A stretch of DNA of 64,000 bases, taken from positions 248,001 to 312,000 of the forward strand of contig JAWMAR010000710.1 of assembly GCA_036785375.1 (NCBI GenBank). Direction: 5' to 3'. The notes under the pieces were generated by a model that was not told where the DNA came from, did no database searches, and saw only the letters and a program-made list of their open reading frames with translations. Both the position numbers and the translations under genes were made by a program. Below, piece by piece: positions 1 through 64,000 of the stretch. The first letter of the stretch is position 1. Each line of letters opens with the position of its first letter. Source of the stretch: Leucoraja ocellata (lineage: Eukaryota).

Positions 1-195
1 AAGCTGAAGGGACAGCAAATTTCCCTGCAATGGTCATTTTTGATGTTGCATCATTCATCTTCATTATTTTTCTACAATATCTCTGGAAGCTGAATACAGA
101 TGTTGAACAAGTGTGCAGAAAACCGATTCCAACTTTAAAGTAATCAGGCAGGAAATGCGATGCACTTAAAAGCTTGATGCAACGATTATGTTAAA

Positions 196-383
196 CCTTA
201 GATTAGATTAGATTAGATTAGATTAGATTATTGTCATTCAGACCTTTCGGTCTGAACTAAATTATCTTGCCTGCAGTCATACACAGAACCAATAAAAACA
301 AACGATACAATAAACACAAATTAAACATCCACCACAGTGAGTTCACCAAGCACATCCTCACTGTGATGGAGGCAAAGTCTTAG
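196..383 (-). mobile_element. 5'-truncated non-autonomous retroelement with Rex/L2-type tail, (TCTAA)n
   Basis: Matches the 3' end of the element at 42097-42290; absent from the paralogous site near 56217. Confidence 0.7.
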
Positions 384-1129
384 TCTGAGCAGGAACAAAG
401 CAGGAAAGCGACAAATTAGTTTGAAAGTAAATAACACAATTCCCCAAAATGCTACATTCTGCATTTCCAACTCTTCTTTTGCATTCTCTGCAATTAATTC
501 TTTTTTTTTTGTCAAAGATGACAAGTGAATAATTTTCACTTCAGGAGATGGTCTTTCGAAAGCAAAATCGCCCACACTGATACTGAGACTGAGACTGTTA
601 ACATGTTCACCGTGGGATAGAACTGACTGGCAACGTACCAAACAAGCACAAAGCAAATGCACAATAAATCCGCAAATCTATTTCCAAAGTCTCCGTTTGG
701 CTCAATATTTTTTCCAGAAACACAAATTGTCTTGGGCATGAGCCTGATGGGCTGTGTCATCTTCTGCGCTGGGTCATTCATTCTGATCTCTCAGATCAGG
801 GTCAGAATTCAGGGTCTGCAATGCGACAGCTTCTCTTGAATTATTTCTGGTGTTTCCTGGAAATTCCTGTGAATATCTGCTGCTCTGTATCAAAGAAGAG
901 AAACAAATATGCTTTAAATAAAGATAAACAATAATAAACAATAGACTGGAAGTGATAGGTAAGAGGTTGCAGACCAAGTTGGAAACATTTTCATGGTCAT
1001 TTAATTCAACCAAAAACACACCAATATCATTGTGAATATTGAATGTGTAATTTGTATTCAATTTGTGTTGATAAAGTGTTCTTTCAAATTTGATATCTTA
1101 CAAAATTACAAGGTTAGAGTGTAGAGAGG

Positions 1130-1790
1130 AATAGATATGTAAATGAACAAAGTCTTTACCCGGGTTGGGGTATCAAGAATCAGAGGACATGGGTTCAAAA
1201 TGAGAGGTGAAAGATTTAATAGGAACCTGAGGGGCAATTTTTTCAATCAGATGGTGATAGGTTTCTGGAATGAGCTGCCAGAGGAGATAGCTGAGGAAGA
1301 TTCTGTAACAGCATTTAAAAAACATTGGACAAGTAAATGGATAGGAAAAGTTTAAAGTTTCATGTCCATAGCTCTCTGAAAGTAACAACACAAGTAGATA
1401 AAATGGTAAAGAAGGCACAAAGTATGCTTGCCTTCATCGGTTGGGCCATTGAGTATAGGAGTTGGGAAGTCATGCTGCATGTTGAAAAAACTTTGATTAT
1501 TCACATTAGGAGTCCTAGTAGCCCCATTAAAGAAAGGACGGGAAGGCTTTTGAAATAACGCAGAAGAGGTTGACCAGGATGCTGCCTGGAATAGAGCAAA
1601 TAACATACATTTAACCTTTATGAAGTTTATCGAAGGTTTGTGATAGAAATAGTTATGATAGTGGCTTTTAAGAGGTTTTTAGATAGGCTAATTAATATGC
1701 TGGGAATGGAGAGATTTGGATCAAGAGCAGGCAAAAGGAATAAGTTTAAATCATGTGTTTCTGTGTTGCACTGTTCTATCCCAAACACTA
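1130..1790 (+). mobile_element. CR1 LINE 3' fragments
   Basis: RGHGFKMRGERF..LRGNFF..WNELP and VKKA..MLAFI..IEYRS motifs. Confidence 0.75.
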
Positions 1791-3049
1791 AAATACAGAT
1801 TGTCACCATTCTAATATGTTCTGTGAACATCCATTTCCTCAACGTCAGAGACAACCCGCCATTAGTTTCTGATATATTGAAAAGCTCATTAAATTCTCAC
1901 CCTGTTCATCCTCCATGAGCAGCAAATTAGTCCAAGAGCAACGGCCAGTTTAATCAACAAGTAGCCCAGAACTGTGATGATCCTAATGTCTGGAAGTGCT
2001 CTCACTGTGAAGGACAAAGTTGAGATTTTCAGTTTCATACTCCATATTGTTTCATAATTAAAGACTCCTGTCTATGATGTAACATCATAAACATTCTGCA
2101 TTAGACAGTGGGACACAGTGAGAAATATTGTGTCAAGAGTGAGAAATATGTGTGCCAATCTTGGGTACCTTTTACATTTCATCCATAACATCCGAGTACT
2201 TTGCTTTGATATTATCTGCTTCATTACTTTTGGAACATTGTGAATATTTTTTGGGTGAATGAGATGTGTCAGAATGTACACAAAATTGGTTGATCCATTG
2301 TCTAAACTGATGTCAACCAGGTGTACACTGCGGAGTCTGCACAAGAGGGACTGGATACAGATTCACAGCTGAGACTCTCCAGGCTCTGAATTCTCACTCT
2401 TGGCCATATTGCCTGATGAGCTATTAGAGCCAATGGAGTGATACAGCGTGGAAACAAGCCCTTTCGACCAACTTGCCCATTGTGGCCAACATGTCCCGAC
2501 TACACTAGTCGTACCTGCCTGCGTTTGGTCCATATCTCTCCAAAGCTGTCCTATCCATTACCCAGTGAATTGTGAGGTTTCACGAGATTCAGCTCTTAGG
2601 ACAAAGGGAATCGAGGGATATGGGGAAAAAGCTTAACAGGGTACTGATTTTGGAAGATGAGCCATGATCATATTAAATGGTGGTGCTGGCACAAAGGGCC
2701 AAATGGCCCACTGCACCTATTTTCTATGTTTCTATGTGAGAAACATCACCTCCCCCCACCCCCCACCCACTTGTGTTTATTGAAAGAAATGTCCATTTTG
2801 ACAAGGTGCAATTTTGCTTCCATTTCATCCTCATGCATTTGTTTGAAAGGTCTGTGTTTCTGTAACATGTATGCACCAAATGCTTTATATTTTATTTTGT
2901 TTTATTCACTGACATAACATTATGGCATCAATTAAGAGGCTCCAGTGGAATTACACTTTGGTCTGTAGCATTGGGTATTGATGGTAATACAGGAGTTTTA
3001 AAATCAGAAATAGCTTTATTTAGGATTATAAAGGGAAAATAGCATAATT

Positions 3050-3280
3050 GGTACTCCTGTGTAGGAAAGAACTGCAGATGCTGGTTTAAATTGAAGGTAG
3101 ACACAAAATACTGGAGTAACTCAGCGGGACAGGCAGCCTCTCTGGAGAGAAGGAATGGGTGACATTTCGGGTTGAGACCCTTCTTCAGACTGATATCAGG
3201 GGAATGGGTGGGACAAAGGTAGAATGTAGTTGGAGACAGTAAGACTGGTGGAAGAACTCGGAAGTGGGAGGGGATAGAAT
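3050..3280 (-). mobile_element. Penelope-derived terminal repeat with hammerhead-like motif
   Basis: Reverse complement reads CTGAAGAAGGGTCTCAACCCGAAATGTCA at 3160-3192, followed by the recurrent GCTGAGTTACTCCAG..TTTGTGTC block. Confidence 0.65.
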
Positions 3281-3740
3281 GGCTGAATGGCCTACTCCTG
3301 CACCTATTGGCTAATGTCTATTAATGTATATACCCAGCTCCCTCTGTGTGAAAAAGTTGCCTCTCAATATCCTATTAATCTTTCCCTTCTCAGCTTAATT
3401 CCCTTACTCTGGTTAAAAGACTGTGCATTTACCCCATTTATTCCCCATATAATCTTAAACATCGTTATAATATCATTCCTCACTTTCCTGCCCTCCACGG
3501 AATAATGTCCAAGCCTGGTAACTTCTCCCTATAGCTCAGGCCCTCAGGTGGTGGCAATGTCCTCATAAATTTTCTCTGATTCCTTCCAGTTTAACAAAAT
3601 CTTTCCTATAGCAGGGTGACCAAAACTGAGCACAATATTCTAAATGCGGCCTCATCAACGTCTTGCACACTGTAACATAACATCCCAACTTCTATACACA
3701 ATCCTTTGACTGATCAAGGCAAATGTACTGAAAGCCTTTT
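3280..3740 (-). mobile_element. Old CR1 3' fragment
   Basis: Degenerate VKKA..LISQRIVYRSWDVMLQ and RPHLEYC-like sequence. Confidence 0.6.
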
Positions 3741-5380
3741 TGACAGTATGCGTGACAAATGCTATAAGGATTCCTACAAGGAATGCCCAAAATAGCAGAA
3801 TGGTGCACAGATTGTAGTGCAGATTGAAGTAGTGTAAATTTATTTTTTTTGTCTGAAAATACTTTGACGGATTCTCACAAAACATTTTCAATCAGCAACC
3901 TTCATTATATTCATCTTTCTACAGATGCTTTCTGACCTGATGAATGCTTCCAGCATTCTCTGATTTTATTTCATATTTAATCAGATGTACTTCTTTTTCT
4001 TTTGATCAAGAACTAGACCAACCTATTGCTATTCTATTGCAATGCAGCAGAAAATTCTTCTGTGCATTTTTGTGCATAATCTTTCATTTCTTCTAGTAAG
4101 GTTGACCAGTTCATCAATGCTGCACACCTGCCAATCTGTTCACAAACCCATGTAGTTTAAGGCTCCATCACTTGCTGGACACTTCAGACTGGGCAGCAGT
4201 CGGCTGTAGTTAGACCAAAGGATTGGGAGGCTTGTATAGCAACTCCTTGGAGGTCAGGGTTCAAATTCAGATCTGCCCCAGAGGAGTCTGATGGAAACTG
4301 TGATGAGGATGAGTACATGGGAAGGTTTCTCTGCCTTACAGCATGGAAGAGATGTCAAGGAGTGTCAGAGATCCCATCTCCAACCTTCTGCACGGCTTTC
4401 TGTAGAGCCATGAGCACAGGTTTCCAATCAAAGGGTTGGGGACACAACAGTGGGAGTGGGTGTGGGGGTGGCCTCTCCCCTGGTGCAGCGGCTGCTGGAG
4501 CAGGGTTCTACTGTCACTGAGGCACAGGCAGAGCACAAACAAAGTCTTCATTCCTCGGTGGACTCTCAGCCGACTGTAGTCAGAGCCCTATTGTCCTCAC
4601 CCAGAGGGAGACTGCTGCTCTGCAGGAGAAAATAAACAGCAACCAAAAGCTCACAGTTACCATCATGAAGAAAGTTGCTGTTGCCAGGAGAGTTTTACTT
4701 GTGTTGGTGAATTGAAACTGCAGGGTCGGCAAAACAAAGCTTTCCCGAAGAAGTGTTAAAGCAGAAAGCATTAAATATTGTTGGATATTTATTGAGTTCA
4801 CTTGACTTCTGAATCATTGAATGAAAGTGCAGATGGAGACATGAGGAAGGGCTTGATAAAATATATCTCAAATGCAACAGTGCTCATTGTGTGTCTGAGC
4901 GTTGTCTTGAATTAATGTCTGTGTGTGATAGGACACACCCATCGCCCCAATGATAATGACACAACTCCTCTGTTGTTTCAGGACAAAAATGTCCAAAAGC
5001 TAATTTTGAAATTAATTCTCATCCCATTTGTGATCTTGAGGAGGCAGTCATTGGATACTAGGAGTAACTACGCCACACACTTAATGCCCAAGGAATAGGT
5101 GATATCCAATTTCTGGACAAATGTGTCACATTTATCTACAGTAACAGCATGCTACTGACATCTACGTATAGTCCTGAGAATGTTTTTTTTTAATTCTCCA
5201 GTTTTGCGGATTCAGATGTTACTGTTGATGATAATGTGGGATCCACAGACCCTTCCACAGAGTGGGCAGGAGTTACCAGAGATACTAACCGCAGTGGGTT
5301 ATGAAATATGATATGTTAGAAGAAATAAATAATATTACGTTTCTGTGGAAATTACAAAGAGCAGAAGACAAGACACTTAC

Positions 5381-5653
5381 CATTGGGTTGCAATGAATTC
5401 TTACCATATGGAATTAAAACCTTGGGAGTATTGTGAAGAAACAAACCGCAGCGATGATTCCTTTTGTCTGCAACAGCTTTTGGAATGATCAGCTGTAAAG
5501 ATGTCTCTTCCTGCCTTGGCTCCTTGAAAATTTTCTCTCCCACTATTTTGCCATCACCATTGATGCAAACAAGTGTCATTGCCTCAGTGACCTTTGACAC
5601 AGAGCAGGTCAGGGTAACGTTGTCTCCCTCAGTCGCTGCATTAGATTGTTCAG
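5381..5653 (-). CDS. IgSF gene copy 1, D8 exon (C2, paralog of D4)
   Basis: 273-nt open exon, tttcccag| and AATG|gtaagt, with an alternative phase-1 donor at 5404. Encodes EGDNVTLTC..LVC..LQLIIPK..NHRC. Confidence 0.85.
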
Positions 5654-6386
5654 CTGGGAAACAAGAAATTCACTGAGAATTAAAACAACAGCTGGAGTTT
5701 CTGCCCAATGTTTTTTATTAAACCTGATGCCTGTAGAACTAATCCAAAGGATCACTGACAAGCTTTTGCACCAACGTTGAGAACACCAACTTTGAGAATA
5801 AGCACCAATTCCCACAACGCTCCCACTGCCCACAGTGCTGGACACAACACCCTCCATGAATTGTAGGCTTTTTCATATTTCAAGATGACTCCAAAGATTA
5901 ATCAGCAACTTCCGGTGGTAAAGAGGAATATGGACATTATTTGAGGAGCATCTGAGTGAGACGTTCAGAATAGTGACCACTATTGTTGTAACAGGTTACT
6001 CTGCAAGCAGCATATAGAAACATAGAAACATAGAAAATAGGTGCAGGAGGAGGACATTCGGCACTTTGAGCCAGCCCCGCCATTCATCGTGATCATGGCT
6101 GATCGTCCCCTATCAATAACCCTTGCCTGCCTTCTCCCCATATCCCTTGACTCCACTAGACCCTAGAGCTCTATCTAACTCTCTCTTATATCCATCCAGT
6201 GGCTTGGCCTCCACTGCCCTCTGTGGCAGGGAATTCCATAAATTCACAACTCTCTGGGCGAAAAAAAATTTTCTCACCTCAGTCTTAAATGACCTCCCCT
6301 TTATTCTAAGACTGTGGCCCCTGGTTCTGGACTCGCCCCACATTGGGAACATTTTTACTGCATCTAGCTTGTCCAGTCCTTTTTAT

Positions 6387-9300
6387 TATTTTACTTCGGA
6401 GTCACGTGAGTGACTACGTGAAGAAGGTCGTCAGAATGCATGCGCGTCAATTACGCAGACGCATTATGCAACGACTGACTGGCAGGCACGTCTCTCCTGC
6501 CAGCGGTAAGTTTAAACCTGCAGGTAAGTTTTGTATTCCTTACCAGGTTCTGTTTTTTCTTGCAGGAACTTCTTTTTACAGAGGTTTCCTGCTGGATATT
6601 TTCGGGGCGAAGTCCGGACGGGCTGCGGGAAAACCGGTTATGGGCCGTGGGTAGACTCCGGTCCGGACCGCGGAAGTGCGGGTTCGCTACCCCAGTCGCT
6701 GACAGTGTGATCAGCGGCTCCCAGACTGCTGTGGTTCCCATGGAGGGGGTAAACCCAGGAGAAGTCACACCAGTCGCTGACAGTTTGATCAGCGGCTCCC
6801 AGACTGCTGTGGTACCCTTGAAAGGGGGTAAAACCAACAATGCAGGTCAGGCCTTTGGACTCGGGCAAGTCAGGCCATGAGGGTTCCCCTCCTTCAATGG
6901 ATAGTGTCTTCGGACGTCTAACCCACATGGAGTACCTAATGGAGAGTTTGCTCCACAATGATATGCTCCAATGGAGGGAGCTATCATTCCGGGACTCCTC
7001 GGGAGCCCGCGGCAGCAGCCACCTGTTACAGGGCTGCACAATGTCTCCCTCTCTGAGAAGGGGAGCATTCGGGGTCAGTTTTCTGACTCATGATCTATGG
7101 GTAAAATGGAGCATGGATAGCGCCCTCAGGCGTTTATCTCACAAATGTGATGTCCCATCCTGGTATAGGTCCATAGGAGGGGCCATATCAGCGCAGGTAT
7201 CCTCAGGGGCCTGCGGCAGCACCTGTTTCAGGGCTGCCTATGAATCTCCTTCTCTGTGGAGGGGAGTGCAAGTGGTCAGTGTGTAACTGACTTTAAATTC
7301 TAAAGTATGTCATACTGGAGCACATGCGCATGTCTTCTTGGGAATCCTCGCAAACGAAGGTGTTGCTGCCAGAAGAGTCGGTTACCAGCCATTGGCAGAA
7401 TACCCGGAAGGGGCCAGAGTTCCCCTCACGCTACAAGTGCCGGCAGTGAACAGTGCTATCAGGGGTGACATTAGAGTAGCCGCCGAATCTTCTCTTCAGG
7501 TAAGACCTATTCAACAGGTAAGACCTGGATGAGGAAAGAAAAGCTGTCGGACCAATTAAGGTACCAACGACGAGCAAAGCTTCATCGTTTTGGTGACAAC
7601 ACACCCCACACCTCCATCGGCAGTAAGCGGTTCACTGAAGCTGGTGGCAGCGTGAAAGCTGGGCAGTGGCCTTTTAAGCAAAGGCCCAAGTCGGTCTCAG
7701 GAAAAATATGGAATTCACGCACCCTACCAGTCCTACTCTCCAACCAAGGTAACCATGCAGGAAGGCAGGTCTGGCACTTCCAAAACATGGGGTATGTGGA
7801 CCACTTACAAGTTGGTAAAATTTACACTTGTTTTTTGTACAAATGATAATGATAACATGTGATTAGTTTATGTGTTGTATGAAAGCACTGCCCTTGATAA
7901 GGATGGAAGGGGCCCTAGTGGCCTTACAACATACAAATGGTTAAGGCATTGCCATCTACTTGGTGGCATATAACCTTTAAACTGAACAATACTAGGGTTC
8001 CAAGCTGGCTTGGAATTGGGGCCAGAGTTGTTTTTCGAGTCAGCCTCTGTATTATGGCCAGGATTGCCTTTCGAGACAGGCTCGGAAATATAGCCAGAGT
8101 TGTCTTTCGAGGCAGGCTCAGAATTATGGCCATTGTCATTCGAGGCAGGCACGGAATTATGGCAGGCGTGACCTGTTCATTGTGAAAGATGGAGATTGTC
8201 GTTTAACTCGCATGTGCAGTATAAACTTCAGAATAGGAAACTTTGTTACTGACTAACAACTGATTTCAATAGGATCTTTATGGCATGCTTCGATCTCAAA
8301 GATACATTATATTCAGTTCCCATTCACAGGGATCACCAGAGACATTTGAAATTTATCTGGATGAGGCAATGATAACAGTTAAAGCATTGCAAAATGGGCT
8401 AACTTCAGCTCCCAAGTGATTTACTAAAATCTTGTAACTTGGACTGCTCAGAGCTTAAAAACACATGTTATATCTTCTGGATGAAATTTTAACACTGTAT
8501 TTTGCTAAAATTAACTGTTTCAGCCTCAAACTATATTTGAGAAATTGGGGTTCCTCATCCATCCAGTTAAATTTAAGTTGATAACAACTAGACTTATTGA
8601 TTATTGGGATTTACCTTTAACTATTAATTTGCTTGTGATTCCGCCCTGGGGCAAGAGATTGGAATTGATAGAACCTTGTAACAACCTTGTTGTTATAAAA
8701 CAGCTTTCTATTCATCAAGTGTAATTGGCAATATCGTAGCTGTGATTCAGCTGTGTAAGTGGGGCTTTTGCATGATCAGAACTTACATCATGCAAAGTAG
8801 AAACCTCTCAAGTGCCATGTAGGCCATTGTTCACTGACCTATGATATTACCAGCTGAAGCAACCAAAGTCACAATGGTGGACAAACAGTATTCAGCATTG
8901 CTCCAGTAGTTTTGGTCAGTAAATCGTCAGTTATATCACAAACTGCTGCTAGTGCTCAAAGATGGAAAATTACGAATGCCATCTCTAGTTCGGTGACAAA
9001 TGATATTTGCATGAGTTACCAATTCTTCAGTTATTGGTATCAACTACCTATAGACACTGGGTGCATTCTATGGGTTAAAGGGTTATTGTGCCCACTCATA
9101 CACAATGGCTGACAGATATTATGTCCTGCCTAAAGCTCGAAAAAATTAGGTACTCACTTCAACATTCAAATGGAAGGTTTCAGAAAGCGTGGGGACCTTT
9201 TTTAAATGCATTCCAGACTTTGTAAATGCTTGATCATCAAGTACAGTTTAACATTAACAGGCTACCCATTCATTTATCGGGGATTATTGCTGTGACAGGC

Positions 9301-11520
9301 TGATATTTGCAAATGCTCACTGGCAGTGACTGGGGAGGGATTATTTTTGGTATCTCATTTTTCTTTTATTGTCGTTTTCTTGTTATATGTTGGCATAAGT
9401 TGTTTTTTATTTATTCTTTTCGTACACTCTGTCTGTAACAAATGGACAACGTTGAACCTTGTTATGTCTTGAAAACTAAATTAAAAGATTTTGATTAAAA
9501 AAAAGGGTTATTGTGCGAATATGCATAATCTGCATGCTCTACTATGGTGGTGGCATATGTTAGTCACATGGGTGCAATCAAGTCATAGTATCCTGTAATA
9601 ATTTACCTTATCTCATTTGGCACTGGTGTATCATCACGTAAAATCAATGACAACACAGAATGGGTGTTGGATCACAAGGTATTTTATGAAATTATGGCTC
9701 GATGGAACACCAAATATCGATGTGTATTCATCCAGGCTCATTCATCGGTTGCAAAAATATGGGGCATAACAGTGGCGAGAGATACATTCTCGCTACTCGG
9801 AGGAGGAATGTTCTTTTATGTCTTTTCTCCATTTTGCCTCATCAGTCGGGTCTTGCAATAAAGTCAGCAATCCCGCTTCAGGCTTTCATACTGTCTGACT
9901 GGCCTATGCAACCATGGTTCCCGCATTTGTCGGGAATAATAATACAAACTTATATGGTTATTCTAAACATAAAACGTTGCTGGTTCTGCCTGTGACTGGG
10001 GAAACCAGCCTCTGCATGATAAAATCAAATTATTGTCTTGCAGATTCTGAGTAAACTGCTCCTGCGGCTCGGGTTTTCAGACCGATCCATGTAAGTTCTC
10101 ACTGCAGAGTGCAGGGATAGCCCCCAAAAAGCATTACATTTCCTCTTCAGGAGATGGGAAGTGGTTTTTTTTAAATGCTAATGTTACATGTAATACAGCA
10201 CGGACTACTGACGTCGTGGCGTTCATTTGCAAATGGGTATTTGACAATAAATTAAGTTATAGTGCCATTTACTGTGCCAAACGTGCCTTCTCATCATATT
10301 TGCTGCAGCAAGCGGGACCCACACGGTTGGGTCTCACCCACTGATATCCAGTTTATAAAGGATATCTTTAACACAAGTTCTCCCAGGCCCAAGTACACGG
10401 ACGTATGGGATATTGACTTTGTATTAACACTACTTCAACAGGGGGCTCCAGCTATATCCTCATCTTTGGCCCAGCTCTCTAAAGGTGGCTATCCTCATGG
10501 TGCTGGTCTTAGCGCAACGGGTCCAGTCACTACATAAATTGCGACTGGACAGGATGGTTACATCTGCAAATAATACAATATTTTATGTTTATGACTCAGT
10601 TAAGCAGACCAGCCCAGGGGTGTCAGGTCTCAAACCAATTCTCATGGCATACCCTATGGATCTACGGTTATGTGTGGTCACACATTTACTACAATATGTT
10701 AGGTCACCTAGAGCATTAGAGGCTTTGATACTAGCAGTATTTTATAGTTACAATAACCAAATAAGAAGGTATCAATTCAGACCATCTCCAGGTGGTTAAA
10801 ACGGAGTTTTGGCTCATGCAGGAGTAGATTCGAATATTTTCTAATCTCACTCCACCCGGGCTACTACAACATCAGCAGCAAGGGTTATGTACGTTCCGCT
10901 GGACCACATCCTAGCGGCTGCAGGATAGTTTAATAAACGAACTCCAAACATTTTATAGTAACCCATTGCCAGACCAGGGGTATTTCCCAACTCTTTCTTA
11001 GGTTCTATTTTATAATTTCCTCCCAGAAGAGAGGGGTTGCTATAATTATTATTTGTTCATTTCAAAAGCATCAGCATGTTTCAAATCTATGTCATGTCTG
11101 TATGCATTATGAATGTTTCCCTTATCTGTGGTCAACGGTTGCGGTTGTGCTTGTGTCGACTCGTGTACACGGCATGAAATCACAGCTTTAAAATCTTCAC
11201 GTAGTCATTCGCGTGACTCCGAAGTAAAATAGTAAGATTAAATGAGCTTACCAGTTTGAAGTTTGATCTTTATTTTATGCGGAGTTACGATGAGCGATTA
11301 CGTGCCTACCGCTCCCACCCTCATATTATAAAGGTCATCTGGTAGGTTGTAGTTCTCTCCAATCTTACTATGTTCAGTTCAACTACTGTTATCTGTGATT
11401 TCACACCGCTGCTTTGAAAGTTGACGCGCATGCGTTCTGACGGCCTTCTTCGCGTAATCGCTCATTGTCACTCCTCATAAAATATAGATCAAACTGGTAA
11501 GTTCTCACTTCATCTTACTA
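6387..11520 (+). mobile_element. DIRS-type tyrosine-recombinase retrotransposon, full outline but degenerate
   Basis: Left end TATTTTACTTCGGAGTCACG.. is complemented in the internal region 11195-11270, which also complements the right end (..GGTAAG..TCTTACTA). RT remnant DLKD..SVPIH..LKFIW near 8290; YR remnant AQRVQSL..SHSTRA..ILAAAG at 10485-10930. Confidence 0.9.
8011..8170. repeat. Degenerate ~36-bp tandem repeat, 4-5 copies, inside the DIRS element
   Basis: GGAATTATGGCCAGAGTTGTCTTTCGAGGCAGGCTC-like units. Confidence 0.75.
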
Positions 11521-14500: not shown

Positions 14501-14869
14501 AGAACCCCACACACCCATCACGCAACAGCCTCTCCACCCATTGATCACATGATCGGACAGTATACATCCAACAATCAGTCGACACAACCCACTCCCACCA
14601 ATCAAATAAAAGACAGACGACCAGTCCAAGACACCACCCACTTCCCACCACCACGACTGTTGGCAGCGACCCTCACCCCGAGTCTACTTCCCATTAATGA
14701 CCCAACCCCCAACACATTGTGATGGTGCTTCAAACTCAGGGAATGCACAGGTGGTGGAGTGGCAAAGGGATTTTTTTTTTTAATTGTGAATTAACATGTG
14801 TTTTATCAGGGCAATTTTTTAATGAGTAAAATACAACTATATTTGAGTAGCAGTTCTATTGAAATTATA

Positions 14870-15180
14870 GCCCTGTCCCACAGTGGAAGTTCATTCCAAG
14901 AGCTCTCCCGAGTTTTAAAAAATCAAACTCGTGGTAAGCACGGAGAATGAACATAGCGGGTACGTCGGAGCTCATCTCTTAGTGCTGACGGCAGGTACTC
15001 GGGAAAACTCGCTAATGGCAGGTAGCACGGGAAGACTCATGAAGATTTGTCAACATGATGAAAAATGTCCATGAGAGCCCCGAGTACTGACGAGTGGCCA
15101 TTACCGTATATCTCCGAGTTCGATTGAAGGCAAACTAGGGGGAACTCTTGGAATGAACTTGTACCGTGGGACAGGGATTT
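14870..15180. mobile_element. PIF/Harbinger-like MITE
   Basis: TIRs CCCTGTCCCAC..AAGTTCATTCCAAGAG at both ends; a partial related copy lies at 39230-39400. Confidence 0.7.
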
Positions 15181-15298
15181 AAATCTTTTTTCAGAGTAAA
15201 ATATTTGGAGAAACATGTGCTGAAATCAAAGTCTGCATGAAAGTGAGTACTTTAGCCCAATGACTTTACCATTCATATTCCAATATTCAGTCTCCTAC

Positions 15299-15637
15299 CT
15301 GTAACTGTGATTAGATCAATGGTGACATATTTATTTGATCCTATGTAGCATGTGTAAACTCCAGCATCTGCAAACTGCACGGGGACAATCCGCACACGGA
15401 AATTCGTGCCATTCACATTTCCCTCTGTGGTTTTCAGTCGATTCCCAAAGTAACTCATGTCGACATGGATCGGCTCAGACCTGTGAGAAGAATCTATTTC
15501 CTTCTCTTGATTTTGGACAAGGTGTGATCTCCAAGTCCATTTGGTTTCATTGAGCGCAAGAGAAGCTTCACAAATCAGGTCGAGTTCACTGTGATCTGTG
15601 ACGGAACGATAAACTGTGTACGTCTTGTTATATAAAT
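15299..15637 (-). CDS. IgSF gene copy 1, D7 exon (V-type, paralog of D3)
   Basis: 339-nt open exon, tcttgcag| and ACAG|gtagg. Encodes LDLIC..KWTW..GNRL..NFRVRIVPVQFADAGVYTC. Confidence 0.9.
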
Positions 15638-16437
15638 CTGCAAGAGAGGGACAGGGAACAAAGAATTAGATTTCCACAGATAGTGAGATACAGATAATCT
15701 GAATTTCCACAGGGACAAACCCCCAGCTCTGGAATGTCAGCTGGGAGGGCCGCACTGAGACAGGAAAGTCGGCTGGGAGCTGCAATACGCTGGCTGCCGG
15801 TCCAGGTGCCCATTGTTCAAACGCCGGGCTGTGCACCAAAGTCCATCTTCCCCAGACACACACCCAGCAAAGTGATGCCGGTGGACTGGAGATAATAAAC
15901 AATCTGTTACCCAGTCTCAGAAATCGATTACAGTGAAATATTTATCACACATTGAACTGGGCATCAGGTTGTTACACAAGGCGAGTCATACAGTGAGAGG
16001 GACATGAAGGAACATTATTTGGAAGATGAGAGTGCCACTGAATGTCAGACACTAAGATCACTGGAGTGAGTGATGAACAACACCCAACCCAAGGAAATGG
16101 CTCAGCCAACAACTGAATTTTGGTGCAGCTGTACATTATCTTGAATAAGTTAATATTCCCATCTACTCTGGACAGAAGACAACTTGCTTCTCTCCATTGA
16201 TTGATGTTATCCCCTTTGATTCATGCAGGAGAATTGAAATTAATCCCTTGGTTCTCCTGTGTAGCTCCATCAATCTTAGTGCCACCATTTTATATTTACA
16301 CCGTGTCCCAGGTTAAAGGCAATGCCAATATCCTGCAGTGAAAGCCCACGGTGAAGTCAGAGCTCACTGTACAATATGTGGAACAGTTTGATATCAGGAA
16401 CTATTTAATACCTGCTGCAAGGCAGCTTTGGACTCAC

Positions 16438-16710
16438 CCTGATCCACTTCAACATTGGTGTCTCCAGTGAGAACAATGGAATCATTTTCCAGCACTTCCC
16501 ATGTGTACAGATTGGGATTTCCTGCTCCAACGTGTTGGATCATCAGATAGATGGTGTTATTCAGATGGATCTGATCAGTGTTGTTTCTCCTGTTCTGCTG
16601 AGATGAGCCTCTTGGTTTCCAGCGAAGACTGACGGTATCTGGGAGTCTGGAGATGGTACAGCTGAGGGTGATGTCACTGCCCATTACTGGCCTCGGTGAG
16701 TCTGCCTCAA
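16438..16710 (-). CDS. IgSF gene copy 1, D6 exon (C2, paralog of D2, F-strand Cys replaced by Trp)
   Basis: 273-nt open exon, tttccacag| and CAGG|gtgagt. Encodes GSDITLSC..SLRW..NLYTW. Confidence 0.88.
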
Positions 16711-51465: not shown

Positions 51466-53438
51466 GTGAGACGCCTCGGATTTGACATTCTTGTCCTCAA
51501 AGAAACAATCAAAACTCTGCAGGCTGCCAGTATTGTCAAGGCAAAGGTGGGCCAGAAAACTTACTCCTCAACAATAAGGATGCATGTGTTTGACTGTATT
51601 GTAAATAAAACTCCCACAGCAAACATTCCAATCCTGATAAGCCAGTTCTACAAGCAGAGTGGACTTCATCTGGATCATGTTCCACAATGCAGTGCAGTTG
51701 AAGTTATGGCCCGAGAATTGGGGGTATTGCTGAGTTGCAAACAGCAGAGATGCTCCTTGCAACAAAGGGTTTGACTGTGGGTTTTGACGCAACCACCCAG
51801 GAAGAGATCCACATTAACAGCATTCATTTCACCACCACAAACAAATGTCTCTCTGCAGCAGTCAAGGAATTAGCTGGTGGGACTGCTGAGAACTATGCAC
51901 AACATATTTGTGAAACAATTGACAATTTATGTAAAACCTACACTTATTTCAATCTGCAAGCAAATTATCAAGAAACCAGACAAAATATGATCGCCAACAT
52001 TTCAAACACAATGAGCGACCGGTGTGCAGCAAATCATGCTGCTATTAGAATTGTGAGAAGTGAGTGGGGTAAATATTTGAACGAGCTCTACTGCCACTTG
52101 CATCTTCTTGACTCCATTGCTACATCAGTTCGCTCAGCCCTAAAAATGCAGAAACAATCTGGAGGACAATTCTTGTTTGGGAAAGACTGTCTAGCAGTAA
52201 ATGCCATTCTGCAGATGAGCAAGCTTCATTATAAAAATGGAAAAGGGGACCCAAAAGGATTTGTCGCATTTTTAGATGACAGGAACATCCCCCAAGGTGT
52301 CCTCCCATGGTATCGTTGCAGCATATTGCACATACTGTTTCACATTAGTGGCAAACTAATAGAACATTATGATGACTTTGTTGCCCTGCTGAATAGCGGA
52401 ATATCCTGTGGGGGGTTGAAAAGCGCCATCCTCTATGACTTCACCCAGGCTGAAGCAAAAGTAGAACTTCAGATATTGGGCTTACTTGGCAAATATCTGA
52501 CTGGGCCTTGGATGAAGTGCTTCTACACTTCAAGCCAGAATCAGATCAACCATGTTGATGGCATCAAAGTGGTAAAAGGGGTGATTGCTGCTCTAAAGGA
52601 AGCCACAGAAGATCCAGAGGAATTGATATTGGCAAGGGAAGATTTCTTCGGTGAGGAGGTATATCTTGATGCCACATTGACAAAACTTCAGGAGCTACTA
52701 GTACATCCACAGTTCAGTTCAAAGATGAGGAGCTGTCTTCAAGCTGTCATCACTGTGTTGGAGAGGCAGTATAGTAAATACTTTGAACTTGATGTTACTG
52801 AGAAACTGAAGGAGGAGACTGCATCAGCAAGATCACACAACATTGATGCGGAGGAGATAATGGGGATGTTTAGTTCATCGAAACAGAAATCTCCCATTGC
52901 CACCATGTGTTATTTGTCATGTAGGATGCGGGCCTGCAAGAATAGAACAGTCAACTTCCTTGATAATCTCGAGGAGCATCGTAGGGAGGAGGTGCTCTGT
53001 AAGGCAGTGACATGTGGGAGAGTGCAGAGGAACAGATGGAAGAAAAAACAGAAGGAATTGAGGGCAGAAATCATCAAGCGACAGAAAGGCAAGGAGCATG
53101 CTCGAGACACGAAAGAGAGGAAAAAACTAGGGAAAGAATTGAAAGAGACTGATTTAGACAGCATTCACAGAGATTATCCGAATTTGGACTATTCCAAATG
53201 TGATGATCTACACGACATTATTAGTGGGAAAGTAATTGGCAGAAAGGCATGCCATTCGTGGTTTGAAGATCAAAAACTTGTAGTTTACAATGCCAAAATT
53301 GAAAAATTGAGGAAAAACAACATGTACAGAGTTGCTTATTGGTTGCAGTCTGAGGAGTATGATGATGCTACTGATTATGATATGCCAATGTACCAGCTAG
53401 CAGCTGATCTTCTCCATAAAGACTTGGTCTTTTGCTAG
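51466..53438 (+). pseudogene. DDE transposase of the hATw-like element, frameshifted near 51735; 567-aa open C-terminal part
   Basis: FDATTQ (D), MSDR (D), CHLH (CxxH), NIDAEEIMG (E); basic NLS-like stretch RNRWKKKQK. Confidence 0.8.
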
Positions 53439-55870: not shown

Positions 55871-58808
55871 CCTTCAGAGATAGCGGGCAACATATCAGTG
55901 ATTATATAATCTTATAGATACAACCTCCAACAGTTTAGTTCTCCCTCACTTCTACACCTGAGTGAGAACTGAAATTTCATTTTTTAGTAAAATCATTATT
56001 GTTAGTTGTTATAATTCTGAAATACAAGCTGAAGGGACAGCAAATATCCCAGCAATGGTCATTTTTGTTGTTGCATCATTCATCGTCATTGTTTTTCCAC
56101 AATATCTATGGAAGCTGAATACAGATGTTGAACCAGTGTGAAGAAAACTGATTCTCACATTTAAGTAATGGCAGGAAATGCAATGCATTTAAAAGCTTGT
56201 TGTAACTATTATGTTAAGTCTGAGCAGGTTCAAAGGAGGAAAGCTACAAATTAGTTTGAAAGTCGATTCCTGAAAGCGGCCTTGGTGACATTGATGGGTT
56301 GAGAGAGTGTTGCTGATGCTATTACTTCCTGCTTGTCTTTTAGGCGACTAGATGTCCAGGTCCGGAACCAGGAAGACAATCGCAAACCAGCTGGACTTCA
56401 CTGTGATCTGTGCTGGAGCAGTGAAGTGTGTGACATTTGCTGAATATGTCTATAGCAGCGAGACAAAAGAATATAACTCCTTTCAGCATCACAGTTACTG
56501 GGGCACAGGGGTAATCAGGTAAAAATTCCCAACCAGATTTTTATTAAAATTCTTTCTGTTTTGTTCATCTGATGTTTCAAAATGTGACCTTGCATGAATT
56601 CCACAACAAAATACTTCAGGTTTTTCTAAAAATAAAACAATGTCCAGCATAATACACATAAAAGGCCCCCATTTCCCAGACTCATCATCTCAGGTGATCG
56701 CCCTTCCACAGCCTCCAACCTAATCGTCCACCAGCCCCTTACTGCCCCTTTCTATCTCCTTCTAAAACTCCGCAAACAGGGCAGCCCTGGCAGACCCATT
56801 GATTCTGCCCAATCCCTTCCCCACATAAATCATTTCCTCCTCTTGTCCAGGCCCGTCCAACCTACATCCAAGGTATCTCACAAGCTTTTCAACACTTCAA
56901 TAACTTTCAATTCCTAGGCTCTGTTGCCTCATCTTTACCACGGCCATCAGATCCATTTGATCTCCGTCTCCCACCGGGAGGGACTCAGAGTTCACCGGTT
57001 CATCCATCATCAGAGTCCCAATCACTTCCCCTCTGCCAACACTCTCCTCCATCTGGCAGAAAATGTCCTCACCCTCAACAACTTCACATTCAATTCCCCT
57101 ATTGCGAGAGTGAGGCCACACGCAAACGGGAGCAACAGCAACTCTTATTCTGCTGGAATAGCTTGCAACCCAATGATACAAACATTGAATTATCCAGTAT
57201 TTGGTCACTAACATGCGATAATCATCCTCCCCCCAAATGTCCTCTATCATTATTATATCACACACTTTTTTCATAACTTTATCTCCGGCCTTTGTCAGAT
57301 CATTTGTTAATCAACAATCCCTCCCCCCCATCCCCCCTCACCTATGTCCCCCTGTCATTAACAGGCCTTGTCACACCCCCAACTCTCTTCCAGCTTTCTC
57401 CCCCTTTTACAATCAGTCTGAAGAAAGGTGTCGACCCAAAACGTGGGCCAGGCAGCATCCTGAGATACTGCCAGACCCATCATTACTCAGCACTTTGTCT
57501 CTTTTTTGTAAATCAGTATCTGCAGTTCTTCATGTCTACAATATATTGGATGGTGACCCTTCCACGTCAGACCCCGGCAGAGTTGGTAATCCTCGTGTCT
57601 GTGTTTATGTCCACACAGCAGAGACAGTTCTACAGGGAGCTTGGGGGAGAGATGAAGAGCACAGGGTGACCAGGTTACAGAACAAGATGGTGGGAACACA
57701 TTAACCTGGAATCACAGGAGGACTGACATCTTCTTGGTGTGGGTTTTACACAATAATGAGCTGGTCTGGCACCCCAGTGATTCCCCCATGGGAATGCTGA
57801 ACGTCTCCTGACCCTCTCACTAACCCTCATACAGAACCAGCATGCTGCAAACATCAGCCCTACCCCACTCTCTGTCACATTCCTCTGTCCACCAGCTGTC
57901 TCCTTCCTCTCTTTGCATCCAATTCCAACCTTCCCTTCATTCACATTATTCCCACTATCCCTCTCCTATTCACACCCATTGGTTCCCAGCCCTTCCCTCT
58001 TCCTGGGTCCGGCTCCCAGCTGAATGCTGATCAGAAGCCCGAGTCTGGAGCAGCTGGAATCACTTCAACCTGAAGAAGAGTTCTGCCCCAAAGCATCACT
58101 TATTAATCTTCTCCAGTAATGCCCCACTGAGTTACTCTTACTAAACATATTAAATTCATTCTTTCAGTATTGTGTATCTGTCAAACAGAGATGAACAGGC
58201 AGCTGCTCCACAGGGAGACTTTCTGGAAGCTTCTCCCTGAACACTGAAGCATTTTGTACAAGAGAGATTTTTGCCATGAACTACAATTCTTCACAGGGTG
58301 CACACAGGATGTTATAATAAGCACCAATGGTATAAGTGTATATTCAATATCTTTTTTTTTTTTTTTTTTTTTGAACAGGCAGCTGCTCCACAGGGGGACT
58401 TTCTTGAAGCTTCTCCTTGAACACTGAAGCATTTTGTACAGGATGTTATAATAAGCACCAATGGTACATGTGTATACTCAATATCTAATATGTGTTATTG
58501 ACACTTACCCAAAATAACATTAAAATTGGCATTACTTGTATGAACGATTTTTCCTTTTTCCCGCACTTCACACACATACAGCTTCCCATCCTCCACTGTA
58601 ACATGTTGGATCATCAGATAGACCGTGTTATTCAGATGGATCTGATCAGTGTTGCTCGTGTTCTGCAGGGATGAGTCCATTGGTCTCCACTGAAGACTGA
58701 CTGTATCTGAGAGTCTGGAGATGGTGCAGCTGAGTGTGACATCACTGCCCAGTAGAGGGCGCTGTGGACTTGCCTCAACTGTGAAAAACAGATCAATGAG
58801 ATTCAGAG

Positions 58809-59704
58809 CAAAGGTCTTAGAGCAGAGCGAGATGGGTTACTCTCACGCAAATGTGTAGTACGCTCATGGGCAGATTCATGGGTGATTATAGGACCCATTT
58901 TAGCGACCAGTACCCGCCATCTTGTTCCGGCCAAAGATTGGATCTTTGTTTCCGCAGCAGGGATAGGGGGTGTGCGGCCCGGGGAGAGGGAGTGAGCGGC
59001 CCGGGGCAGCAGGGAGAGGGGCAGAAGAGGGTGGGGAGACATTGTAGTGTGGGGGCAGGCGAGGGAGTGCTGGGGGGGCGGGGGGGGGGGGTGGGGGGTG
59101 GGGGGGGAGAGAGTTGAGGGGTGGAATAAGGCCTAGTGTGTGTGAAGTTGCGGGGAGGTTTACAATGTTTCTTATTTAATGTCCCTTGTCTAGTCTGAAA
59201 TAAAGTTCATCATTGGATCAGAAGAAATATAATTGTGTGTGTTATATGATTATATATATTTATATCACATTCATGTATGTGTGTTTATAAACATTTTATT
59301 CTTTAACAAGAAATAACAGAATTATGAACTAACAGAATTATGAATCTAACCCTGCATCACACACAAAAACTTTCCCCGCAATGTCAACTCAATCAACTCA
59401 AACACTGCTTGTGAGCCATTTAAAAAGAAATGATTTAAAAAACATTAAAAAAGACAATTACCAGAGTCAAATTTTATTGTTGACAAGAAGTATGAACTGG
59501 CAGAATTATGAATCTAACCCTATATCACACACACAAACTGTTGCCCCGCAACATTGATTACACTGCGAGTCAGGTCGGGTCAGGTAGGCTCCGGTTACTA
59601 AAATGGGCGGTGAAAAATGCCCAGGATCCCCTCCGTAGCGTACTACACGTCAGCCCATTGTATTTCGCAGGAGTGGCCTATCTTGCTCTGCTCTAAGATC
59701 TTTG
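58809..59704. mobile_element. Non-autonomous hAT-like DNA transposon, 896 bp, 8-bp TSD
   Basis: TIRs CAAAGGTCTTAGAGCAGAGCGAGAT / CAAAGATCTTAGAGCAGAGCAAGAT; TSD ATTCAGAG at 58801-58808 and 59705-59712; single ATTCAGAG at the paralogous site near 23105. Confidence 0.9.
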
Positions 59705-60359
59705 ATTCAGAGTGAGTTGGAGTGTGGACAGTTGAATGACTGGGCTCAATCTCACCTCAGCTGAAAACCTAGACATACAGATAGAAGAACAACTTTCCCA
59801 GTGGTTTCTGACTCTTGAACCAATCATCACCTTCCTGGTGGTGCGGTCACGTGTTCTTGCTGTTATTGCAGTTTTATTTTGCATTCATTCAGACAACTCT
59901 GTAAACTCTGCACCGTTCTGCTGTGTTGCATTTATTGTATTTATGGTTTTATCCATCATTAAATTTTACTCAATGAGCTTCATGTGAACAAAGAATGTAT
60001 TTGCATCTTGGTGTTTATGTTAATCAACTCATCTGGACCTGTATCGGTCAACTCATCTGGATCTGTTACGTTGTTGCTGTTTGACACATTTTTTTTTTTT
60101 TAATCAAAATTAATTATTCAAATATTAATATAATATTTACAAGACAATAAAACACAATACAACCCACCACCATAACACAAGACAAACAATAAACTATTGT
60201 ACAACTATCTTACAGTCCTTGTCAAGGATGCAATCACCCCCCGCAGTGCCCAGCGGTCCCGGAAATCCCCCAGAGTGCCCATGGAGACTGCATGGTTCCT
60301 TTCCAAACCACTCGGGCACGGACGTAACCCCGGAAAAGGGGCAGGCAACTGGCTCAGGC

Positions 60360-60680
60360 CTGGCATCATGGCTTGGCTTGGCAACTTGAGCGCCAGAAGC
60401 GGAAAAGACTATAAAAAGTGCTAAACACTGCTCAGTCCATCATCGACTCAGACCGCCCTTCCATCGAGGGGATCTATTGCAGTCGCTGCCTCAAAAAGGC
60501 TGGCAGCATCAACAAGGACCCACACCATCCTGGCCACATACTCATCTCCACGCTACCTTCAGGTAGAAGGTACAGGAGCCTGAAGACTGCAACGTCCAGG
60601 TTCAGGAATAGCTATAATAGAATTTCATTGTCCCATCTGGGACACATGACAATAAACTCTCTTGACTTGACTCTTGACTT
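60360..60680 (+). mobile_element. Rex1/Babar 3' fragment
   Basis: KKAGSI.KDPHHPGH..LPSGRRYRS; ATGACAATAAA + (CTTGA)n tail; absent from copy 1. Confidence 0.8.
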
Positions 60681-60769
60681 GCGGATGGCCAGCTTGGCCT
60701 GGTCCTGGAGAGAAGGTAAAAACGGGCTATGCGGTGCAGGGAAACGATTGAGATGCAGGTTGTGGAAGG

Positions 60770-62310
60770 CAGACAGTCAGAAGTGATGAAATCAATAATG
60801 GTGTTAGCGGAGCTGGTCCTCACCCTCAACAACTTCTCCTTTGACTCATCCCACTTCCTCCATGCTCCAGGCATAGCTATGGGCATCCATATTGACAGCT
60901 ATGCCTGTATCTTTGTTCGGTACATTGAACAATCCCTGTCCCAGGCATACACTGGCCATATACCCAAACTCTATCTCCATTACATTGGTGACTGCGTCGG
61001 TGCTACCTCCTGCACCCATGCAGAACTCATGGACCATCATCGCCAATTTTCAGCAGGCATTCAAATTTTCTCTGAAGCCTCCCTCCCCTTTCTTGATATC
61101 ACAGTCTCCATCAGAAGAAATAGACTATTAACTGACGTCAATTACAAACCCACTGACTCCCACAACTATCTCAACTACACTTCTTCCCACCCTGCTTCCT
61201 GTAAAGAGTCTATCTCCTACTCACAATTCCTCCATATAGTCTGCACCTGCCCCAAAGATGAGTTATTTCATGCTACATAATCCAAGATGTCCTCATTCTA
61301 TACGCAATGGAGGTTCCCTTCTTCCATTATTCATGAGGCCTTCACTCATGCCTTCTTGGTACCCGGCACCTCAGCCCTTGCTCCCCCTCCTCCTAGTGAC
61401 AACAGAGACACAGTCCCCCTAGTCCTTACCTTACACCCCATCAGCCATCGTATACAACACATAATCCTCCTACAGTTCCACCACCTACAACTGGATCCCA
61501 CCACTAGCCACATTTCCCCATCTCCACAACTTTCCGCCTTCCGCAGAGAACGTTCCCTCCACTACTCCCTGGTTAACTCATCCCTTCCCACCCAAACCAC
61601 CCTCTCCCCAGATAACTTACCCTGCAACCGCAGAAGACGCAACACCAGTCGTTATACCTCCTTCCTTGACTCTGTCCAGGGACCCCGACAGTCATTCAGG
61701 TGAGGTACAGGTTTACTTGCACCTCCTCCAACCTCATCTACTGTATCTGTTGTTCAAGATGTAGACTCTTTTACATTGGCGAGACCAAAGGCAGACTGGG
61801 CGATCGTTTCACGGAACACCTTTGTTCAGCCCACATCAACCAACCTGACCTCCCGGTTGCTGGACACTTCAATTGTCCTACCCATTCCTACACAGACCCC
61901 TCTCCTCGTTCTCGTTCCCCTCTATTGTTAGAGTGAGGGTAAATGCAAATTGGAGGAACAGCATCTCATATTTCACTTGGGCAGCATACAGCCCAGTGGC
62001 ATGAATATTGATTTTTCTAACTTCAGGTAGCCCCGCATTCCCTCGCTCTCCATCCCTCCCCCACCCAAACCACATTGTCTTCTCATTTTCACCCTACAAA
62101 CAGCTTACAATGGCCTGTTTCCTTTATCATCATCACTTTTTTGTATGTTTATAATTCATTGTTCTTTATCTCTCCACATCACTGTCTATATCTCTCATTT
62201 CCCATATTCCTAACTAGTCTGAAGAAGGATGTCAACCCGAAACATCACCCATTCCTTTTCTCCAGAGATGCAGCCTGTCCCGTTGAGTTACTCCAGCTTT
62301 TTGTGTCAAT
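60770..62310 (+). mobile_element. Penelope-like element, segmental-duplicate of 23860-25335
   Basis: LTLNNFSF..GIAMG..YKPTDSHNYL..NLIYCI.C..YIGETKGRLGDRF, with the same flanks as the first copy. Confidence 0.88.
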
Positions 62311-64000
62311 TGCCAGTGCTGTGGCTTGTTGGTCACTGTTTAAATGAGGACATTTCTTTTTGCACCAAGGGAAGATTGTAATCTTAGTTGTATTGTATTG
62401 CATTTATTTTTGAAATGTTTATTATATCAATGATAATATTATACAATATATTATTTCTATTGAAGTCATTATATGGCAACTAATGATATTATAATTATTT
62501 CTATTGTTGTCTTTATAAGGCTACGAATCATATTATAATTATTGTATAAGATATTTCTGAGTTAGTCTTCTCCCATTGATTTTGGTTCCTACTGTTGTAT
62601 TGGGGATTTATTATGTGGAACGTATAAAAGTCCCCTGGTGGACATGTTGAGTTACCTGCTACTGCGATTGTCTGTGACACTAACTGTAGCCCCATTATTA
62701 CACATAGCCCTGAGTGACTGGAGTATTCACATCAACACACAGGTTTACATGTGACATTATTAACAGGGAAACTCATTATAGATCCATGTCTCACCCACTC
62801 ACCTTTGATCCCAAATATTTGATATTGTTTCAGGATTTGCTTCCTCGGCTGTGTTTTAGTCAAAGTGAAGAATCCCGCCCATTTAAATGCTTGTTTTTTA
62901 ATGTCAGTTTACAAGTACTAGCATCCACACCCACCTCCTGGTTCTTGTCTCTGTCTCTCCAGCCATCGCCCCACTGGATGGCCCAATGCTTGTCCGCTCT
63001 GCTGCCAGTTAACACTGTCTGGATTCCCTGCCCTGAGTGTGGTTCCCATTCCCAAACAATGACGTTGCTCCAGGATTTTCCGGTCCATTTAACTTAATGC
63101 TGCCTCCATTATCCACAAAATAAATCAGATTTCTCTTTTCTGTTGGAAAGAGGAGCAATGAAGGAATTTAGAACACATTTCCTCCACCCCATGTCAGCAA
63201 TTTAAGATTTTGAATTCCATTCATTTCCAGAAAGCTTTGACCTTCCTCTGAAAGACATAAAGTGCTGGAGTAATCAGCGGGTCAGGCAGCATCTCTGGGG
63301 AACATGGATAGGTTACAATTTGTGTCAGAACCCTTCATCAGACAACTGTGAATCCGAAGAAGGTTCCTTACCTGAAATGTCACTTATCCATATTCACCAG
63401 AGGTGCTGTCCGACCTGCTGAGTTACTACAGCACTTTGTTTTTTTTCATTCCCTGTGAATCATTGTCTGAGAAATAGATTGTCGGAAGTTGGATAAGGGA
63501 GTTCAGTATTACGCCTGCCCATGCCCAGGTCATAGGTCACTAGCTATAAAGTTTCGGCAACAGTGGTGCTGCATTGTGTGCAGACTTGTGTTTCGTCCGT
63601 GGTCGGGGTCGGAGTGCTCTTGTTGCTGCTGGGCCATCCCATCCACGGTGTCCCATCCGTGTCCGGAGATGTCCGGGGTGGCCTTGAGCTGGCGGTGCGG
63701 CCTTGGACTTTCAGCCGTGTGGGTGGGGGGGGGGGAATCATGGACGGTCCAGTAGCGGTTCTGCAGCGCTTGCGGTTCGGCAGCGTTGGTGGTTGCGGGG
63801 GTACGGGTTCAATCCTGGCAGCAAACGAGACGGGGTTATCCAGATGAGAGCTGGTCCAGTCTTCTCCCCCCCCCCACCCACACGGCTGAAAGCAAGATTG
63901 ACAAAAGGGTGCGGGTTTACATGGACAATATTAAATTAAAGCATGGTGATTGTGACCGGTAAAGAGAAAGCACTTACTCTGAGTTGAAACGGGTCGAAGC

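Follow-up and report, generated by a model that had tools for sequence, protein, structure and literature searches.

Results

A chimaeric receptor gene in an amplified unit

We analysed a stretch of 64,000 nucleotides from the skate Leucoraja ocellata (C710:248001-312000, hereafter the window), together with the whole of the 770-kb scaffold C710, 210 kb of the collinear part of a second contig, C115, and 400 kb of the C115 flanks. The window contains an open gene of 912 amino acids, a deleted (collapsed) pseudogene and an inverted pseudogene, in agreement with the one intact, one collapsed and one inverted copy recorded in the initial annotation. The results indicate that the window is probably a unit of a tandemly amplified cluster of predicted paired receptors of the immunoglobulin (Ig) superfamily (IgSF) in cartilaginous fish, whose intact gene is a chimaera carrying an activating tail on an inhibitory ectodomain. 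Gene structure, unit amplification, shared lesions, two tail types, ratios of nonsynonymous to synonymous substitution (dN/dS) above 1, the junction and both donor lineages were all observed. The paired activating/inhibitory family and the tail swap go beyond the initial annotation.

The intact gene lies on the minus strand and encodes a leader, eight Ig domains, a transmembrane exon bearing a lysine (Lys) and a short tail. Its ectodomain has a V-C2-V-C2 arrangement, present twice with one exon per domain, and the two halves are 36-58% identical to each other. The spliced open reading frame (2739 nt, 912 amino acids) contains zero internal stops, all exons have AG/GT ends, and the product is 94% identical to an uncharacterized little-skate model over 846 residues. 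The exons are as follows:

28375..28462, minus strand: leader exon of the intact gene, matching the N-terminus of skate protein P0003
26545..26880, minus strand: D1 exon, V-type Ig fold without the canonical disulfide; no Pfam match; model confidence (pLDDT) 84.6
22813..23082, minus strand: D2 exon, C2-type Ig
20813..21157, minus strand: D3 exon, V-set Ig
20474..20734, minus strand: D4 exon, C2-type Ig with a WxC motif
17960..18298, minus strand: D5 exon, repeat of D1 (36% identical), cysteine-free
16438..16710, minus strand: D6 exon, repeat of D2 (58% identical)
15299..15637, minus strand: D7 exon, repeat of D3 (47% identical)
5381..5653, minus strand: D8 exon, repeat of D4 (57% identical)
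1901..2004, minus strand: transmembrane exon of the activating type, its membrane segment containing a lysine
774..884, minus strand: last exon, 36-amino-acid tail

A motif check of the 36-residue tail found no immunoreceptor tyrosine-based inhibitory motif (ITIM), no activation motif (ITAM), no Cx(C/H) and no (F/Y)xxL(D/E). Like D1, D5 had no Pfam match and lacked the usual disulfide; D1 has one non-canonical cysteine, D5 none and D6 one. The D1 model resembled V-set domains generally (Z 11-13, root-mean-square deviation about 2-3), with no single family standing out, and the D1 profile matched nothing below E 0.88 among PDB sequences. The full-length fold was of low confidence (pLDDT 59.6), and Foldseek ranks obtained from it serve as leads only.

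An activating-lineage tail joined to an inhibitory-lineage ectodomain

Most of the intact gene is shared with an ITIM-type gene on C115. Window positions 25331-3278 aligned with C115:4723134-4745172 over 22,055 bp at 99.53% identity, and exons D3-D8 showed no difference between the two genes. The shared block and the point at which it ends are:

3278..25331, minus strand: 22-kb block, spanning D2-D8, shared with the ITIM-type gene on C115 (99.5% identical; D3-D8 exons 100%)
3270..3285, minus strand: non-homologous intronic junction (about 3278) between the inhibitory-lineage ectodomain and the activating-lineage tail cassette, also present in the neighbouring unit

Beyond the block, the C115 gene continues through a whole repeat to a neutral transmembrane exon and then an exon with IHYGSI. 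At the window junction this C115-type repeat breaks off after about 45 bp and a different repeat takes over; the latter is whole in another unit of C710, A2, ahead of the same Lys exon. Each repeat flanking the junction is thus whole in its donor (C115 or A2) and cut in the window. The junction occurs twice on C710, in copies 97.9% identical.

Related proteins identified the lineages on either side. Thorny-skate P0078 has the same D1 and D6-D8 (91-96%) and pairs this D8 with a neutral segment and two ITIMs, indicating that the inhibitory state is the older one. In skate proteins P0034/P0035 the same Lys exon (88-91%) follows a different D8; D7 and D8 of this kind (95% and 80%) precede the Lys exon in unit A2, thereby identified as the donor of the tail. 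Together these pairings show that the window gene has an inhibitory-lineage front and an activating-lineage end, and it is likely, judging from these alignments, to be an immune receptor recently switched in sign by recombination. The next gene down presents the same contrast, being of the Lys type on C710 and of the neutral ITIM type on C115.

Unit A2 (C710:108617-128591) itself holds a second eight-domain Lys-type chimaera with open exons, whose front belongs to the window gene's lineage and whose D7-D8 and tail belong to the other. P0078 runs from D1 directly to D6-D8, by internal deletion or skipped exons. Elsewhere on the scaffold, D1-D6 of an ITIM-type gene are missing at a scaffold gap (C710:341818-345591), while the gene is complete on C115 (C115:4634204-4649600).

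Two tail types across cartilaginous fish

Database homologues came from sharks, rays, skates and chimaera and were nearly all named 'uncharacterized' or 'hypothetical'. Among 129 such proteins (isoforms included), 20 had a Lys transmembrane segment and 58 a neutral segment with an ITIM-like motif (IxYxxI / VxYxxI); 12 had a neutral segment without such a motif, and no segment was called in the remaining 39. The window's genome carries both tail types, and both are kept from sharks to skates. Two tail types on similar ectodomains mark the family as a predicted paired activating/inhibitory system. Six four-domain genes were labelled inhibitory by their transmembrane exon, their ITIM exons lying mostly beyond the DNA examined. 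A thorny-skate ITIM tail at first matched nothing in the genome, a false negative caused by small exons; tblastn later located these exons.

Profile searches extended the family to four-domain relatives in sturgeon, bowfin, eels, tarpon, pike and cypriniforms, and to shorter relatives in a frog; the fish and frog relatives show both tail types. The family profile also reached coelacanth CD4 (E 4e-15; hhalign probability 96.5%). No paper describing the family was found in searches of the main texts of open-access articles, and a term search of a shark single-cell paper (PMC11372145) returned nothing relevant; the family is apparently undescribed.

Family proteins span 4-16 Ig domains. Shark models P0001, P0002 and P0004 (1309-1710 amino acids) contain about three to four repeats of the four-domain unit, and P0015 (AGQ17915.1), a nurse-shark member, was deposited as 'obscurin-like', apparently a misannotation.

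Pseudogenes and amplification of the unit

Self-comparison of the window revealed three homologous D1/D2 sets, two on the minus and one on the plus strand, with intron homology of 79-90% across blocks of 0.5-2 kb, as the initial annotation had reported. The two pseudogenes are:

56261..64000, minus strand: collapsed pseudogene, sister of the intact gene (edge leader, frameshifted D1, open D2, half D3 joined to 3' flank)
41288..45765, plus strand: inverted pseudogene fragment of the other D1 clade, made up of the 3' part of D1 followed by D2; in the window unit a deletion removed the leader and the 5' part of D1

The collapsed copy retains D1 (about 62803-63139), D2 (about 58509-58778) and half of D3, ending at 56261. 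It carries -1 deletions at nt 70 and nt 247 of D1 and a 19-nt deletion in D3, and in mid-D3 it jumps into sequence resembling the 3' flank of the intact gene (56217 = 194). The inverted copy retains a D1 remnant (about 41288-41505) and D2 (about 45499-45765); D1 is frameshifted, D2 has a -2 deletion and a lost donor, and a deletion of about 700 bp took out the leader and the 5' part of D1. In tree analysis the collapsed copy is the sister of the intact gene, and the inverted copy groups with another long gene and a four-domain subfamily (support 100/99). Derivation of the inverted copy from the intact gene was rejected, since it belongs to another D1 clade.

The trio of collapsed pseudogene, inverted fragment and long gene forms one unit that occurs four times on C710 at a spacing of 68-78 kb and once on C115, with units 96.7-98.1% identical to each other. 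The D1 -1 frameshift near nt 70 is common to all five collapsed copies, the 19-nt D3 deletion and truncation to the four collapsed copies tested, and the D1 lesions to the four inverted copies with alignable D1. The lesions of each pseudogene are therefore mostly inherited with the unit. The initial annotation had described the inactivating indels as independent: the lesions do differ between the two pseudogenes, but each set is largely common to its counterparts in neighbouring units and was not acquired copy by copy. Three independent births of the copies were likewise rejected in favour of one amplified unit. The duplicated block crosses both window edges as had been claimed, with homology continuing to about 1 kb outside the left edge and the leader exon of the collapsed copy straddling the right.

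C710 and C115 are 98.4% identical across 571 bp of non-family flank. We infer that the two may be haplotypes, in which case four units against one would be a copy-number difference within one animal.

Family size and diversifying selection

The expectation of further members nearby was borne out by an exon search of the genome, in which D2 gave 143 matches among 150 scored, D1 144 among 150, D3 100 among 118 and D4 100 among 132; units are repeated along C710, and further copies were present on C115 and homologues in sharks, rays and chimaera. Besides C710 and C115, a hand count gave about 67 D4-type loci on 46 contigs, some near-identical pairs of which are probably alleles. From these, 44 loci were sampled, chosen for being compact and mostly open in frame; D1-D4 were open in 34, and the other 10 were left out.

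Per-domain dN/dS, a check suggested by the initial annotation, was computed for these 34 four-domain paralogues by the Nei-Gojobori method. The values were 2.28 for D1 (95% interval 1.54-3.5), 1.75 for D2 (1.02-3.09), 2.86 for D3 (1.9-4.34) and 1.61 for D4 (0.83-3.3). A codon model gave omega of 2.9, 2.3, 3.3 and 2.0 for D1-D4, with twice the log-likelihood difference from omega = 1 at 41, 17, 68 and 10. Columns with at least four residues numbered 15, 7, 24 and 7 in D1-D4, and 40-50 columns per domain were invariant. Flanking-intron divergence from filtered local alignments was 0.017-0.039, near dS (0.035-0.046), and the dN of D1 (0.106) and of D3 (0.115) exceeded it. The intron control was only partly clean. 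These values suggest that the skate V domains D1 and D3 are under diversifying (positive) selection, with dN/dS well above 1. Together with the different unit number of the two collinear contigs, they uphold the earlier view of a fast-turnover immune-receptor cluster.

Several loci departed from the usual form. About 30 small contigs (G000; e.g. L140, C4027:1-10000) hold near-identical copies made up of a leader, a D1 with a stop and a truncated D2; almost every contig has a single copy, and a large tandem repeat may have captured a gene fragment. L138 (C4595:28901-38900) has D2-D3 repeated within one gene, and loci L104/L108, at C3173 and C3764, have extra D1 exons upstream.

Genomic neighbourhood and other features of the window

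The cluster sits between ARAP3 and a prolyl 4-hydroxylase alpha (P4HA) gene. For 10 of the 12 named ARAP3 matches with a given contig size, that size equalled that of a contig bearing family members, indicating that the two lie on the same chromosome. In human, ARAP3 and P4HA2 both lie on 5q31. The synteny scan covered the 150 longest of 2115 flank open reading frames, with some substitutions, and no family exon was found in the 400 kb of C115 flank. Matches to major histocompatibility complex (MHC) class I numbered 11, on five other contigs of this fragmented assembly, none being on C710 or C115. A coelacanth CD4 query matched nothing in the genome, its own CD4 included, and this search was uninformative.

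The window also contains the following:

51702..53438, plus strand: stop-free frame of 578 amino acids without a Pfam match; its neighbours in the Atlas, at 0.92, are hypothetical proteins of eukaryotes; the corresponding part of the neighbouring unit lacks it; a DNA transposon is its likely source
30660..35848, plus strand: long broken long interspersed nuclear element (LINE) of 34% GC that matches endonuclease and reverse transcriptase; it lies upstream of the leader of the intact gene
11510..14383, minus strand: LINE with endonuclease and reverse-transcriptase matches, inside the 10-kb D7-D8 intron
42557..42870: GC-rich minisatellite with a 38-bp repeat (8.3 copies at 96%), lying between D1 and D2 of the inverted copy

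Discussion

Proposed origin and function

The likely event that put the activating tail onto the ectodomain of an inhibitory receptor is a deletion, or an unequal crossover, within the last intron of the ectodomain. By analogy with KIR, NITR and DICP, the transmembrane lysine would pair with an ITAM adaptor of the DAP12 or FcR-gamma type, the IxYxxI and VxYxxI tails would recruit SHP phosphatases, and D1 and D3, as the variable V domains, would bind a fast-changing ligand, either a self marker or a pathogen mimic. The swapped gene would then see the same ligand as its inhibitory twin, yet activate the cell. In the likeliest history, an inhibitory self-sensing receptor came first, recombination yielded an activating twin answering a pathogen mimic or altered self, and unequal crossing-over multiplied and killed copies.

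A bolder version of this proposal, which we regard as possible though doubtful, is that the family is an undescribed, jawed-vertebrate-wide sister family of CD4/LAG-3. It would constitute a natural killer (NK)-receptor-like system of sharks and rays equivalent to KIR/Ly49, with a skate expansion under strong diversifying selection and with activating and inhibitory versions of one identical ectodomain on two haplotypes of one animal, like KIR3DL1/KIR3DS1.

Evidence against a tail-swapped paired receptor and alternative explanations

A number of observations weigh against a paired-receptor cluster with a tail-swapped gene. In one RNA run of a related organism, of which about 5% was used, depth was 0 on the D8 bin and reads over 700-5700 were swamped by repeats; no public RNA data set was listed as containing the window stretch. 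The C115 twin lacks the last exon, which bears the second ITIM, and may be weakened. On the ectodomain tree the neutral-transmembrane label required 5 changes against a shuffled mean of 5.7, and well-supported branches force only 1 change of tail label. Five genes labelled activating-type (L107, L126, L128, L132 and L133) carry glutamate where the membrane lysine would be, a reversal of charge that recurs and would alter adaptor pairing. In three others (L105 and the C738 genes L096 and L098) a stop directly follows the membrane segment; little-skate P0095 terminates at the same place, and the tail-less form may be conserved. As to selection, the first intron control, based on a multiple alignment, gave 0.02-0.19 and overlapped dN, the local-alignment figures omit poorly aligned pairs and hence run low, and tree-based omega is inflated by recombination. 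C710 carries five 200-N gaps, one of which conceals the tail in the unit that is collinear with the C115 gene. At the junction, an outside contig of 77 nt matched exactly, its short side of 27-28 nt falling below the 31-nt bar, and 3260-3268 had no cover in 2 of 4 outside runs.

The last two points bear on the possibility that the family is real but that assembly errors produced the tail swap and the array of four units, through mis-joined or falsely duplicated haplotype pieces. C710 is indeed a gapped scaffold mirroring part of C115, and the junction sits within interspersed repeats. Against this, the units differ by 2-3% and bear unit-specific lesions, and this level of identity is too divergent for false duplications. 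The junction is moreover present twice, it joins two different repeats with no switch within shared sequence, and no gap lies inside the window. We consider an assembly artefact improbable. Still less credible is an expansion of co-receptors of the CD4/LAG-3 (or G6f-like) kind, which would bind MHC class II or collagen and function as those molecules do, not as paired innate receptors. Such a reading draws on the exon-per-domain V-C2-V-C2 layout, the WxC in D4, the profile match to coelacanth CD4, the g6f-like and CD4 neighbours in the Atlas, and the rank of LAG-3 and CD4 near the top for the low-confidence full model. It is opposed by the absence of Cx(C/H), (F/Y)xxL(D/E) and ITAM from the window tail, by YxC in place of WxC in D2, by dozens of loci as against the one CD4 and one LAG-3 per genome in PMC10768021, and perhaps by the location between ARAP3 and a P4HA gene. 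The many pseudogenes, including the 30 near-identical truncated D2 copies on small contigs, and the failure to find RNA support in the relative's run would also fit passive expansion, with fragments carried in segmental duplications, decaying neutrally and retaining little receptor function. In a sample chosen partly for open frames, 34 of 44 loci were open in all four exons; the well-elevated dN/dS of the V domains beside the invariant columns largely refutes this explanation, and both tail types are conserved from sharks to skates, leaving passive expansion highly improbable.

Comparison with known receptor systems

The family fits the class of paired IgSF receptors: similar ectodomains lead into either a charged transmembrane segment followed by a short tail or into ITIM tails, and the many clustered genes include pseudogenes, vary in copy number and show signs of diversifying selection. 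By analogy, it is predicted to work like KIR, Ly49, NITR and DICP. The activating members of KIR and Ly49 arose from inhibitory members (PMC2213150). The likeness extends to paired receptors with a charged transmembrane residue versus an ITIM, inhibitory forms being ancestral, to the spread of activating forms by recombination and duplication, and to haplotypes that differ in gene content (PMC2213150). The skate family differs in its unrelated domains, V-C2-V-C2 units, 4-16 Ig domains and occurrence in cartilaginous fish.

CD4 and LAG-3 share the V-C2-V-C2 ectodomain (here present twice), the WxC in the fourth domain and profile similarity, through coelacanth CD4 (PMC10768021). In the window gene, however, WxC occurs in D4 only (WRC), D2 having YVC, and both Cx(C/H) and (F/Y)xxL(D/E) are absent from the tail, leaving no LCK-binding or LAG-3 motif. 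The skate family is in addition multigene, with a doubled ectodomain, a D1 lacking the canonical cysteine pair, predicted ITIM or Lys signalling and linkage to ARAP3. G6f-like proteins have four Ig domains, and in the Atlas their cluster was one of those nearest in features and structure; G6fL carries an ITAM plus YxN in its cytoplasmic part (PMC3528668), and the window tail has neither. No match named G6f-like appeared in the homologue or profile searches. Membership in CD4, LAG-3 or G6fL was rejected on the tail-motif tests.

DICPs likewise form clusters of paired receptors; they are built from repeated two-domain units, occur as activating, inhibitory and secreted forms, and vary in gene content (bioRxiv 2021.06.11.448072). 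C23 and C104 are retained in their domains, bowfin DICPs map to the MHC, and the paper reports none from chondrichthyans (bioRxiv 2021.06.11.448072). Window D1 and D5, in contrast, lack the C23/C104 pair. The MDIRs of clearnose skate are also a skate multigene family of activating and inhibitory Ig receptors (PMC3031540). Compared by description, MDIRs resemble CD300, TREM and pIgR (PMC3031540), whose Cx6-9C motif is absent here. The 42 PDB matches included no CD300 or TREM and pIgR only at E 0.0066, and in the homologue searches no protein was named MDIR among 33 of 33 matches or among the 120 listed of 145.

The chimaeric structure has counterparts in the fusion genes FcgammaRIIC and SIGLEC14/5, in which intronic recombination joined one paralogue's ectodomain to another's signalling end. 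These are mammalian, and their families are unrelated to that of the skate. The window preserves a change from inhibitory to activating receptor of the kind that has been proposed for KIR and Ly49, and its junction and two donor lineages can be seen. For cartilaginous fish the family is a candidate, open to testing, for a polymorphic system of paired receptors; it has dozens of loci, hypervariable V domains under positive selection, two signalling types kept from sharks to skates, and an architecture like that of CD4 that is shared with relatives in sturgeon, bowfin, teleosts and frogs. With identical D3-D8, the two forms could serve as a matched pair in assays of signalling and ligand binding.

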